DNA from: Bacteroidota bacterium
Lineage (GTDB): Bacteria > Bacteroidota > Ignavibacteria > UBA10030 > SZUA-254
Length of the DNA: 64,000 nucleotides
Reading direction: 5' to 3'
Assembly: GCA_044449065.1 (NCBI GenBank)
Contig: JBIOHP010000002.1
Coordinates: 117,462-181,461 of the forward strand
Positions 45,824 to 50,064 of the stretch are shown here, in pieces (within the stretch, counting starts at the first letter, position 1; every line of letters starts with the position of its first letter). The notes below the pieces were generated by a model. That model was not told the origin of the DNA. It was given only the letters and a program-made list of their open reading frames with translations, and searched no databases. The position numbers were made by a program, and so were the translations under genes.

Positions 45824-45847
45824 CTCCCCTCCTCAATCGAGGAGGGG
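45824..45847 (+). repeat. Perfect 10-bp GC-rich hairpin TCCCCTCCTC-aatc-GAGGAGGGGA (member of a recurring CTCCC/GGGAG hairpin motif)
   Basis: Read directly. A similar hairpin (ATCCCCTCC-n6-GGAGGGGAT) occurs at 47138-47161. Confidence 0.5.
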
Positions 45848-45945
45848 AAACCAGCAGAGAGGTGTGGTCGGAATCAAAAGAGAGCGTTTCATAAAGACCA
45901 TAATATTCATAGTTAACCGTTTAACATTATTGGAAGACCTCCCGG

Positions 45946-47137: not shown

Positions 47138-47161
47138 ATCCCCTCCTGCGAGGGAGGGGAT
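47138..47161 (+). terminator. GC-rich hairpin ATCCCCTCC-tgcgag-GGAGGGGAT 22 nt after the gcdH stop; terminator-like without a contiguous U-tract
   Basis: Read directly. Confidence 0.4.
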
Positions 47162-47237
47162 AAAGGGGTGGGCTTTCATCGGGGACTTAGAGGGTTTATA
47201 AAAGTGTTTTCTCATTATAATATTATCCAAAACCAAT

Positions 47238-48704
47238 ATGCCAATCAAAAAATTTTTAGGTGAAGCGATCACGTTCGACGACGTCCTCCTAGTTCCAAGG
47301 GAATCGTCGGTGCTTCCGCGCGACGTCGATATCAGCACGAAGCTTTCAAGAAATATCCGGCTGAACATCCCGCTGGTATCCTCGGCAATGGATACCGTAA
47401 CGGAAGCGCGGCTGGCAATCGCCATGGCGCGGGAAGGCGGCATCGGCGTCCTCCATAAAAACATGTCGATTGATCATCAGAGCGCTCAGGTGGATCAGGT
47501 AAAACGTTCTGAAAGCGGTATGATCTCCAATCCCACTACCATGAAGCCCACGCAGACGGTCGGGGATGCACAGCAGATGATGGGCCATTATCAGATCTCC
47601 GGCATCCCGATTGTCAATGACGACGGCAAACTCGTCGGAATCATCACAAACAGGGACCTCCGGTTCGATCCCGATGAAACGCTCCCGATCTCAAAACTCA
47701 TGACGAGCAAAAACCTCGTTACGGCTCCGGTGGGAACCTCGTTGGCGGAAGCCGAGCACCTTCTGCAAAAACATAAAATCGAAAAACTCCTCATCGTCGA
47801 TAAAAAAGGAAAATTGCAGGGGTTGATCACCTTCAAGGACATTCAGAAGAAGAAGAGTTTTCCAAACGCCTGCAAAGATACGCGCGGCAGGTTGCGGGTT
47901 GGAGCGGGAGTCGGCGTGACCGTTGATACGATGGAACGGGTAGACGCGCTCATCAAAGCTGGCGTCGACGTCGTCATTGTCGATACCGCCCACGGACATT
48001 CGCGCGGCGTAATCGATATGATTAAAAAAATCAAGCGCAAATATCCCGATAACGAACTCATCGCCGGCAACGTTGGGACCGGCGAAGCCACCCGCGCACT
48101 CATTGCTGCCGGCGTTGATGCGATTAAAGTCGGTATCGGTCCCGGTTCGATTTGCACGACGAGAATTGTCGCTGGAGTCGGCATCCCCCAGATCACGGCT
48201 GTGTACGATTGCGCGAAAGCAGCGGCGCGTTCGGGCGTTCCCGTGATTGCCGATGGCGGGATTAAACAAACAGGAGATATTCCCAAAGCGATCGCGGCGG
48301 GCGCTGATTCTGTAATGATCGGCAGTCTCTTCGCCGGAGTGGATGAAAGCCCCGGAGAAAAAGTGCTGCTCGAAGGCAGAGGTTATAAAACGTATCGCGG
48401 CATGGGTTCTATTGAAGCGATGAAAAAAGGAAGCAGCGACCGGTATTTCCAGGATGTTGAGGATGAGCTCCCCAAACTCGTGCCCGAAGGCATCGAAGGG
48501 CTTGTGCCCTACAAAGGTCCCCTGGCGGATACTATATTTCAAATGGTCGGGGGGTTGCGCGCTGCGATGGGTTACTGCGGGTGTCCGTCTATCGCCGACA
48601 TGAAAACCAAAACGCAGTTTGTAAAGATATCCGAAGCGGGTTTGCGCGAAAGCCACCCGCACGACGTAGTGATATCCAAAGAAGCGCCGAACTATCACAG
48701 ATAG
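47238..48704 (+). CDS. guaB: Inosine-5'-monophosphate dehydrogenase
   Basis: N-terminal FDDVLLVP, tandem CBS domains, catalytic loop [11 protein letters not shown]. Confidence 0.95.
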
Positions 48705-48720
48705 ATTTTCGGTAATAATA

Positions 48721-48887
48721 TTGACCTCACCCTAACAAACATCAAGGGTAAGGGATGCAGTATTTTCTCTTTGACCTCACCCTAAGAAACATCAAGGTTC
48801 AGGGAACTGATACTTACTTCCTCTCCCGGTGGGAGAGGGAAATTATAATATGATCTTATAGGAAAAACCTTACCGGGGTGAGGTCAA
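48721..48887. repeat. MITE-like element: 12-bp terminal inverted repeats TTGACCTCACCC / GGGTGAGGTCAA enclosing two 35-bp direct repeats and a CCTCTCCC-ggt-GGGAGAGG hairpin
   Basis: DR1 48721-48755 TTGACCTCACCCTAACAAACATCAAGGGTAAGGGA. DR2 48771-48805 TTGACCTCACCCTAAGAAACATCAAGGTTCAGGGA. Inverted terminal copy CCGGGGTGAGGTCAA at 48873-48887. Confidence 0.55.
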
Positions 48888-48993
48888 TTAAACATCATCT
48901 TAGAAAATTTCGTAGGTGCCACATTACTGATGGGTTAAGAAAATCAATCTTATGAACAAAATTCAATTTCGATAACAAATTTAAAATTATAGA

Positions 48994-50064
48994 GTGTCAT
49001 CAATTCGTCTCCAAAAACTTCGCAAGATCCTTGATCAACTTGATCTTGACGCGTTCCTGATAACCTTTCCGCCGCATTTGCGGTATATAAGCGGGTTCTC
49101 CGGTTCATCAGGATTGGCTGTGGTGAAAAAAAACTCTGCATGGATCTTCACCGACGGTAGGTATACCCAGCAGATACGGGAGGAAACACTCGGTTGGAAA
49201 GTCCACATCGCCGGCGGCAGTTTGTTCGAGGAGCTGAAAAAGACCTCCTCCCTCCTCGCTTTAATGCGGGTCGGGATCGACGGCAATACGATGATGCTTA
49301 CGGAATTCCACCAGTTGAAGAAAATCTTTCCGCGCGTGAAATTCATCCCGAAAGTTGATACCATAGAGCAAATCACGGCGGTGAAAGATATTGGAGAGAT
49401 CGAAAATATCAGATCAGCAGTACGCATCACGGATAAGGTCTTCAAAGATTTGCTCCCGATGGTGAAACCGGGCGTGAGCGAGCTTGATCTCTCGGCGGAA
49501 ATTTCCTACCGCCACCGCAAGTATGGCGCAGAAGGCGACGCCTTTGAACCGATCGTTGCCAGCGGCAAGCGGAGCGCACTTCCACACGGAAAAGCGTCGT
49601 CAAAAAAAATCAGAAAAGGCGAACTGCTCACGCTCGATTTTGGCTGTACCTATAACGGATATCACAGCGATATGACGCGCACAATAGTTGTGGGAAAACC
49701 GACATCTGAAATGAAAGATATTTATGATGCGGTTCTAACGGCACAGATGCTTGCGATTGAAGCGGCAAAAGACGGAATCAAATCGCGCGACCTTGACGGT
49801 GTAGCGCGATACTCTATAAAAACGGCGGGGTATGATAAATATTTCCGGCATTCACTGGGGCACGGCGTAGGGTTGCAGATTCATGAATCACCGCGGATAT
49901 CAATGCAAAGCAAAGCGGTAATCGAGAAGGGAAATGTCGTCACGATTGAACCGGGTATCTATATACCGCAATTCGGGGGAGTTCGTATTGAAGATATCTT
50001 AGTCATTACGAACGATGGTTCCGAAAACCTGACCCGCTCCCCTAAACATCTCATAATCGTATAA
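48994..50064 (+). CDS. M24-family metallopeptidase (Xaa-Pro aminopeptidase / prolidase-like)
   Basis: GTG start. Metal ligands in D...D (LTLDFGCTYNGYHSDMTRT), HGVGLQIHESP and E...E near the C-terminus (pita-bread fold motifs). Confidence 0.8.
   Translation: MSSIRLQKLRKILDQLDLDAFLITFPPHLRYISGFSGSSGLAVVKKNSAWIFTDGRYTQQIREETLGWKVHIAGGSLFEELKKTSSLLALMRVGIDGNTMMLTEFHQLKKIFPRVKFIPKVDTIEQITAVKDIGEIENIRSAVRITDKVFKDLLPMVKPGVSELDLSAEISYRHRKYGAEGDAFEPIVASGKRSALPHGKASSKKIRKGELLTLDFGCTYNGYHSDMTRTIVVGKPTSEMKDIYDAVLTAQMLAIEAAKDGIKSRDLDGVARYSIKTAGYDKYFRHSLGHGVGLQIHESPRISMQSKAVIEKGNVVTIEPGIYIPQFGGVRIEDILVITNDGSENLTRSPKHLIIV

Follow-up and report, generated by a model that had tools for sequence, protein, structure and literature searches.

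A short palindromic element between guaB and pepP in an Ignavibacteria-like metagenome-assembled genome is probably a diverged, locally duplicated copy of a widespread intergenic repeat

A 167-bp palindromic element was analysed that lies between guaB and the M24 peptidase gene pepP, at positions 48721-48887 of a 64-kb stretch of contig JBIOHP010000002.1 (the window), derived from the metagenome-assembled genome (MAG) of an Ignavibacteria-like member of the Bacteroidota. The element is probably (at roughly 70%) a lone copy, AT-shifted and duplicated locally, from a widespread family of short intergenic palindromic repeats, carrying the blocks of the BoxC, PIT and TMECO repeats of Escherichia coli. 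This family consists of three blocks, (T)TGACCTCACCC(C), a CCTCTCC-loop-GGAGAGG hairpin and (G)GGGTGAGGTCA(A), which are those of the E. coli repeats. In its most likely state, the element is a structured insert, neutral or selfish, in the transcript of guaB-pepP.

The end block TTGACCTCACCC was located on the forward strand at 48721-48732 and again at 48771-48782, and its reverse complement GGGTGAGGTCAA at 48876-48887, in agreement with the original prediction, which had placed the block at 48721 and the end of its reverse complement at 48887. These three exact copies lie within 167 nt, and the block occurs nowhere else in the window on either strand (about 0.008 occurrences are expected for a given 12-mer); at up to two mismatches, there was likewise no excess elsewhere in the window. 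When the flanking A/T is included, the repeat finder reports an outer inverted repeat of 13 bp with 100% complementarity (ATTGACCTCACCC at 48720-48732 and GGGTGAGGTCAAT at 48876-48888). The two 35-nt direct repeats described earlier (48721-48755 and 48771-48805, forward strand) were found as claimed, identical at 32/35 positions and 50 nt apart. The second is the true left end of an inner unit of 115 nt (48772-48886) and comprises TTGACCTCACCC at 48771-48782, a TAA linker at 48783-48785 and the start of the left arm, the full order of the inner unit being TGACCTCACCC, 37 nt, a central hairpin, 35 nt and GGGGTGAGGTCA. The first is an extra left end, made up of TTGACCTCACCC, a TAA linker and about 20 nt (CAAACA-TCAA-GGGTAAGGGA). 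The central hairpin, a GC-rich pyrimidine/purine structure that the original prediction had also described correctly, was returned by the repeat finder as CCTCTCCC-ggt-GGGAGAGG(G) at 48820-48838, extendable to 48839; read as (T)CCTCTCCC-GGT-GGGAGAGG(G), it contains eight Watson-Crick pairs and one G-T pair. In the right end (48873-48887, reverse strand), the inverted end block GGGTGAGGTCAA comes after a CCG linker ('type B'). The GC-rich blocks are intact and have a GC content of 64%, and the arms between them, at 32% GC, are mutually non-complementary. C-rich pyrimidine/purine hairpins number three in the window against none in 50 shuffles and, because hairpins of this type were absent from the shuffles and three copies of the 12-mer fall within 167 nt, the pattern is not a product of chance. 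The earlier statement that no open reading frame (ORF) is present was right in effect but not to the letter: a mechanical 32-amino-acid ORF crosses the element at 48755-48853 without any sign of being a gene, and it was not regarded as one, and a small-protein reading was ruled out, because the repeat copies fall in different frames with non-synonymous differences.

The element is intergenic. guaB ends with a TAG stop codon at 48702-48704 and the pepP ORF starts with GTG at 48994, and the 289-nt region between them (48705-48993) has a GC content of 35%, compared with 44% for the window. The gene order guaB-pepP-GT4-purD is the same in L155 and L156 (two contigs of P0003, the closest relative represented by DNA), where the guaB-pepP spacer measures 31 nt and contains no element, and where pepP is 75% identical to that of the window. 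The spacer measures 36 nt in a contig of P0002, and the guaB-to-pepP alignment distance is 13-50 nt in 18 further syntenic metagenomic relatives, so that about 250 nt of the spacer in the window are without counterpart in relatives. The relatives are labelled Ignavibacteria or Ignavibacteriales, and the pepP proteins next in similarity reach no more than 75-76% identity; because the relatives with an empty site are this distant (pepP identity of at most 76%), exact insertion junctions cannot be drawn. The lineage of this MAG acquired the DNA of the element at a normally tight, operon-like guaB-pepP junction. Downstream of it, the remainder of the enlarged spacer (48888-48993; 106 nt) is AT-rich, with 25% GC, and only its last 15 nt or so before the pepP start align with L155. 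When the intergenic region was compared by low-stringency BLAST with 80 related loci and with the window itself, only the internal repeats were matched. The comparison of orthologous guaB-pepP junctions that the original prediction had proposed therefore returned empty sites, with spacers of 31, 36 and 13-50 nt against 289 nt. That prediction had named as contradictory a unique element conserved at the same site in relatives; what was found instead were elements with the same ends dispersed in many other genomes, and relatives lacking the insert.

The dispersed elements were identified by running the pattern TGACCTCACCC-N80-110-GGGTGAGGTCA on 185,579 species genomes (GTDB), a collection that does not include the source genome. 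The pattern matched 74 loci (L081-L154), in 75 stretches, where about 1-2 were expected; since it forces exact ends and a fixed length range, the diversity and abundance of the family are not given by these counts. The matches belong to Spirochaetota, Leptospiraceae, Chloroflexota, Acidobacteriota, Armatimonadota, Peregrinibacteria (a candidate phylum), Myxococcota, Proteobacteria and many Bacteroidota, the last comprising Hymenobacter, Chitinophagaceae, Saprospiraceae, Cytophagales and Bacteroidales. Some genomes hold 2-5 matches, and further copies occur inside the same loci. In the common build, TGACCTCACCCC and a short linker precede CCCCTCTCC-loop-GGAGAGGGG; after it come a variable middle, frequently another hairpin of this kind, and lastly a linker and GGGGTGAGGTCA. 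The CCTCTCC-loop-GGAGAGG hairpin was present in 61/75 stretches, twice in 33 and once in 28, and the motif was counted 101 times in 529 kb of family loci, once in the window (in the element itself) and not at all in 514 kb of DNA from relatives. Members with a single hairpin have spacers of 21-39 nt and a total length of 102-130 nt, a layout that the inner unit of the window matches (37 and 35 nt; 115 nt) and that is also seen in L082, L086, L093, L099, L111, L118, L123, L124, L130, L137, L139, L148 and others. The TAA linker of the window corresponds to the 'type A' linker on the opposite strand, and TAA/TAAAT linkers likewise occur in L101R, L121R, L095R, L138R and L143L.

The element shares with the cross-phylum palindromes the end blocks, the hairpin, the block order, near-symmetric spacers and the length of the single-hairpin subtype, in addition to the lack of a target-site duplication and to arms that are often non-complementary. 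It differs from them in having CCC rather than CCCC in the end block, a hairpin in the register CCTCTCCC rather than CCCCTCTCC, AT-rich arms without a detectable homologue and an extra, duplicated left end. A crude ORF-based analysis of gene context, unreliable in GC-rich genomes, gave no orientation bias for the family loci.

In E. coli K-12, 23 TMECO repeats have been listed, for example CCCTCTCCC-TGT-GGGAGAGGG-CCG-GGGTGAGGG, and these intrastrand-triplex repeats were equated with BoxC, known from the 1990s (Bachellier), and with the PIT elements of Hoyne and Maher (Holder et al., 2015; PMC4666352). They are always intergenic, are not associated with transposons, phages or plasmids, and mark loci that vary between strains; their triplex-motif (TM) units measure 34-37 nt, and their frequent inverted pairs always combine type A (TTA linker) with type B (CCG linker) (PMC4666352). 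The triplex was formed by single strands in vitro, not detectably in vivo, and the motif was reported only for Proteobacteria, plus G/C-rich triplex motifs in cyanobacteria (PMC4666352). One E. coli pair (hrpB-mrcB) was inspected directly as sequence. The window element has in common with these repeats a CCTCTCC(C)-loop-(G)GGAGAGG hairpin and the third block GGGTGAGG, as well as A (TTA/TAA) and B (CCG) linkers that adjoin the third blocks and are combined in an inverted pair: the linkers of the window read CCTCACCC-TAA at 48775-48785 and 48725-48735 and CCG-GGGTGAGG at 48873-48883, A and B being joined as in the inverted pairs of E. coli. Also common to both are a strictly intergenic position, frequent inverted pairs, no known tie to a transposon and a proneness to local deletion or duplication. 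However, the third block in E. coli follows the hairpin after exactly 3 nt and faces inward in inverted pairs, whereas the end blocks of the window face outward, carry a TGACC/GGTCA extension and lie 35-37 nt from a single central hairpin; in the cross-phylum set, too, the third blocks face outward, ending in GGTC(N). The host also differs, being a Bacteroidota MAG rather than a proteobacterium.

Two patterns were used to judge membership, a strict TMECO pattern (CCCTCNCCC-N3-6-GGGNGAGGG-N3-GGGNGAGGG) and a relaxed one consisting of the hairpin, at most 12 nt and GGGTGAGG. The strict pattern matched in E. coli only, with no match in the window, the family loci or the controls; the relaxed contiguous pattern gave 2 matches in E. 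coli and 69 in the family loci, and none in the window or the controls. The window hairpin is one C short of the 9-nt TMECO pattern CCCTCNCCC-N3-6-GGGNGAGGG, and its third block GGGTGAGG starts 36 nt after the hairpin, which departs from the triplex geometry (3 nt). As the element matches neither pattern, it is treated as a variant and not a member of TMECO. Direct repeat 1 can be aligned as GACCTCACCC-TAA-CAAACA-TCAA-GGGTAAGGG with the E. coli arrangement ACCCTCACCC-TAA-CCCTCTCCC-TCAA-GGGAGAGGG and, going by this alignment, the direct repeat may be a decayed TM unit or hairpin; the two direct repeats cease to be similar after 35 nt, which corresponds to a single TM unit (34-37 nt in E. coli).

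Several points weigh against reading the element as a copy of this family. Its end-block match to the family exists by construction, because the search pattern was taken from the window, and the independent evidence is therefore limited to the central hairpin and its spacing. The window copy fails both the strict and the relaxed pattern, its end block lying 35-37 nt from the hairpin rather than 3-12 nt, and its arms show no significant similarity to those of any sampled family member. A second copy is absent from the 64 kb of the window and from 514 kb of relatives' DNA, and multi-copy status in this genome is unproven. The reading does not account for about 106 nt of extra spacer (48888-48993). 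Lastly, the perfect preservation of three 12-mers, together with the conservation of the blocks at orthologous loci elsewhere, could mean function rather than neutrality.

The history that would account for the element as a family copy begins with an insertion gained in the lineage of the MAG, after which the left end (the end block and about 23 nt) would have been copied to a position 50 nt upstream, with slippage at the structured repeat as the probable cause. In their arm parts, the direct-repeat copies are identical at 20/23 positions and, given the great divergence of arms among family members, this identity indicates a local duplication and not a second insertion. A 19-nt pattern from the direct repeat (TTGACCTCACCCTAANAAAC) had no match in the viral collection or in the 185,579 species genomes, and the 35-nt repeat is consequently considered private to this locus. 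End blocks are also locally duplicated in other members (L096, L128 and, as an array, L109). The blocks would have stayed intact while the intervening arms became AT-rich, a pattern that is seen directly and whose cause can only be proposed. The element would be transcribed within the guaB-pepP-GT4-purD message, in which the central hairpin of 8-9 bp and a long-range stem closed by the 13-bp outer repeat are predicted to be able to fold. It probably does nothing specific for guaB or pepP and may persist as a selfish or neutral structured repeat.

The original prediction had classed the element as typical of miniature inverted-repeat transposable elements (MITEs), and part of this description stood: the element is small and non-coding, has perfect terminal inverted repeats of 12-13 bp, is extra with respect to the empty site of its relatives, and shares its ends with multi-copy elements in other genomes. 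Its ends read 5'-TG...CA-3', which we take to resemble the ends of the IS3 family. Other hallmarks of a MITE were not seen. The search for elements bounded by the same ends and for target-site duplications, which had also been suggested, yielded 74 dispersed loci in species genomes but no duplication: the test over 75 family members was negative at every length from 1 to 10 bp, direct flank matches being at or below chance (0/75 at 3 bp). At the window copy, too, no target-site duplication is present, the flanks reading ...AATAATA|TTGACC and GGTCAA|TTAAAC with only a palindromic A/T extension, and a T...A palindromic extension is enriched in the family (39/75 members). An idea that TGA^TCA serves as the target was dropped; other copies end in GGTCN, and the TCA had been imposed by the search pattern. 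The 25 commonest Pfam families of the 46 large ORFs of the window, an incomplete list, include no transposase; none was noticed in the family loci either, and no full-length element with these ends was met, although no systematic search for one was made. The near-identity of the blocks in many phyla and the conserved inner hairpins are both atypical for MITEs, and the family hardly occurs on plasmids and does not occur in viral contigs: TGACCTCACCC-N80-110-GGGTGAGGTCA had no match in the viral contigs, the intergenic region had none in the plasmid collection, and the family consensus matched only three Pseudanabaena plasmids there. It is thus unlikely that the element is a classical MITE, that is, a deletion derivative of an insertion sequence (IS) moved in trans by a DDE transposase recognising the 12-13-bp inverted repeats. 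Compared with the bacterial MITEs Correia/NEMIS and ERIC/IRU, it has a similar size and terminal inverted repeats, codes for no protein, as they do, and likewise lies between genes, following one; it is unlike them in having no target-site duplication and no parent IS (none was seen incidentally, again with no systematic search).

The lack of target-site duplications argues against a cut-and-paste transposase acting on terminal inverted repeats, and is easier to reconcile with a single-strand (REPIN-like) route that recognises hairpins, or with copies that recombine or undergo gene conversion with one another. REPINs and BIMEs are REP doublets mobilised by RAYT, a Y1/HUH transposase (Bertels and Rainey, 2011; PMC3116915). 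They resemble the present family in being short, intergenic and multi-copy, in consisting of a hairpin-containing unit paired in inverted orientation and in lacking a target-site duplication, and in both cases copies within a genome are more alike than copies at orthologous sites. There is however no sequence similarity to REP, and REP is lineage-specific whereas the blocks described here are nearly identical across phyla. An association with RAYT was not seen, although no search aimed at one was made. The within-genome likeness was seen in two species of Hymenobacter, in which elements at an orthologous position (L090 1203-1313 against L135 1445-1561 and L126 903-1018) have unrelated middles and different linkers, while the two copies in Hymenobacter sp. 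UV11 (L135 and L126) are nearly alike. Such homogeneity within a genome is typical of an active or converting repeat family.

A second orthologous site was found in two Chitinophagaceae MAGs (L115 3113-3235 and L137 7452-7577), whose surroundings are collinear over 3.6 kb at 86% identity. The element sits exactly between two convergent genes that have the TGA/TCA of its ends as their stop codons. Its blocks are conserved and its arms far more diverged, and one MAG carries the entire interior inverted relative to the other. Taken together, the Hymenobacter and Chitinophagaceae patterns suggest turnover by re-insertion, conversion or inversion and not simple vertical decay. The flipped interior, for which the arms scored 62 when compared inverted and 26 when compared directly (null maximum 42) and for which BLAST gave 78% identity in the reverse orientation, also bears on a different explanation of the window element, namely that it is inverton-like and that recombination at the inverted 12-mers flips a 93-bp or 143-bp segment, changing the expression of pepP and the downstream glycosyltransferase. 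The geometry would suit such a switch, as the short segment immediately before pepP-GT4 is enclosed by perfect inverted repeats, and inside it lies a palindromic ATTATAAT (48842-48849) that is -10-like on both strands. However, a simple scan detected no complete promoter inside the segment, the 25 commonest Pfam families of the window include no recombinase, the repeats are short (12 bp), and the L115/L137 flip could equally reflect independent insertion in either orientation. A switch of this kind is considered highly improbable.

The position of three identical 12-mers upstream of pepP, two direct and one inverted, had led the original prediction to offer, as an alternative to a mobile element, a triple operator at which the TTGACC-containing repeats bind a transcription factor controlling the M24 peptidase. 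This proposal is not sustained by the distribution of the 12-mer, which makes an operator array very unlikely, verging on negligible: the same sequence bounds palindromes at 74 unrelated loci in many phyla (as an 11-12-mer, it forms the ends of about 60 palindromes that are unrelated to one another, as are their contexts and phyla), and relatives with the same gene pair and operon are entirely without it. The sites moreover lie 106-272 nt upstream of the pepP start, in inserted DNA.

The remaining alternative is a structured RNA, either a small RNA from the minus strand resembling whalefall-1 or a structure that acts in cis on the guaB-pepP message to stabilise, terminate or decouple it. Whalefall-1, found so far in whale-fall metagenomes alone, has been interpreted as an RNA (Weinberg et al., 2010; PMC2864571). 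Its Rfam model (RF01762) aligns to 48773-48841 on the minus strand, with the hairpin CUCUCC/GGAGAG and AGGGUGAGG, at 16.4 bits and an E-value of 0.06-0.12, and a similarly weak match of 19 bits was obtained for L082 (a Leptospiraceae member). The layout is shared, with a CUCUCC-loop-GGAGAG hairpin, a variable stretch of about 22 nt and AGGGUGAGGAC, but 16.4 bits is far under the gathering score of 37, so that the window element is not a member. No Rfam family reached threshold in the window or in 16 family loci, and the matches to microRNA precursors, none of which attained the gathering score, merely reflect long hairpins. The intergenic region was predicted to fold with -73 and -78 kcal/mol on the two strands (z = -3.6 and -4.0 against shuffles), a stability greater than that of shuffles on both strands which is expected for any palindrome; the equal signal on the two strands is, moreover, what a palindromic repeat acting at the DNA level would give. 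The preservation of the blocks while the arms diverged at the orthologous Chitinophagaceae site would be compatible with an RNA, yet the stems are invariant and consequently offer no covariation in its support. The promoter and terminator scan found no terminator-like site and no suitably placed promoter, only a single weak promoter-like site, on the minus strand and outside the element; as relayed by Holder et al. (PMC4666352), earlier tests found no promoter or terminator activity in the PIT elements of E. coli (Hoyne and Maher, 2002). An RNA function is accordingly judged to be distinctly unlikely. The weak site itself, a sigma-70-like TGGAGA-16-TATAAT at 49013..48986 (minus strand), overlaps the pepP start and points toward the element.

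Other observations were made on family loci. Tandem arrays of family units occur in L111 (approximately 1069-1610, with a period of about 167 nt), adjoining its element, and L109 16-160 is a short-period array of TGACCTCACCCC...GGGGTGAGGTCA hairpins. In Reyranella, palindromes at unrelated loci of two species (L119 2295-2409 and L142 5398-5510) have TGACCTCACCC ends and another interior without the CCTCTCC hairpin, and the end block is for this reason common to more than one kind of palindrome. A further long palindromic repeat in Hymenobacter sp. UV11 (L126 7027-7250) scored 67-69 bits on both strands against Rfam AaHKsRNA41, the gathering score of which is 97.

In the window, the three C-rich hairpins sit in three consecutive intergenic regions within 3 kb. 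A hidden Markov model built from 71 TM half-elements was poorly aligned and not discriminating, though it did point to the two hairpins other than that of the element. The spacer between the acyl-CoA dehydrogenase gene and guaB holds a second triplex-motif-like unit at 47139-47174, TCCCCTCC-TGCGAG-GGAGGGGA-TAAA-GGGGTGGGC, which also reads as a four-run G-quadruplex motif and whose 18-nt core GGGGATAAAGGGGTGGGC is identical in the orthologous spacer of L155 (290-307), the rest of the spacer being different. The third C-rich pyrimidine/purine hairpin, CCCCTCCTC-AATC-GAGGAGGGG, lies at 45826-45870 and is followed 13 nt later by GGTGTGGTC, one mismatch from GGTGAGGTC. Elsewhere in the window, three adjacent paralogous ORFs of about 128 amino acids each occupy 753-2112 on the minus strand; their mutual identity is 41-42%, and the first has no Pfam match.

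With the element read as a family copy, the locus is clarified as one that holds neither a regulator of the peptidase nor a newly invented kind of transposon, but a diverged copy of a type of repeat already known in the 1990s, which split a normally tight guaB-pepP gene pair. It is a tentative and on balance doubtful idea that the three blocks (the TGACCTCACCC end, the CCTCTCC/GGAGAGG hairpin and the inverted end) form a recognition module for a factor acting in trans, for instance a recombinase or an HUH/Y1 enzyme that binds hairpins, by which palindromes are inserted, homogenised and flipped in bacteria of many phyla. It would be consistent with blocks that remain intact while arms decay and that are conserved at orthologous sites, and with copies that are more alike within a genome than between orthologous sites, one orthologous pair being opposite in orientation; the window copy, in which the left end is present twice and the right end once, would on this view have arisen as a side product of the factor. 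A module of about 40 nt that is almost unchanged in Spirochaetota, Chloroflexota, Bacteroidota, Acidobacteriota, Armatimonadota, Peregrinibacteria and Proteobacteria extends more widely than the E. coli motif reported for Proteobacteria only. The conservation of blocks alone, the lack of target-site duplications and the flipped orthologous element provide handles on the mechanism of copying and on the constancy of the sequence, and some of the carriers, such as Hymenobacter strains, are cultivable.

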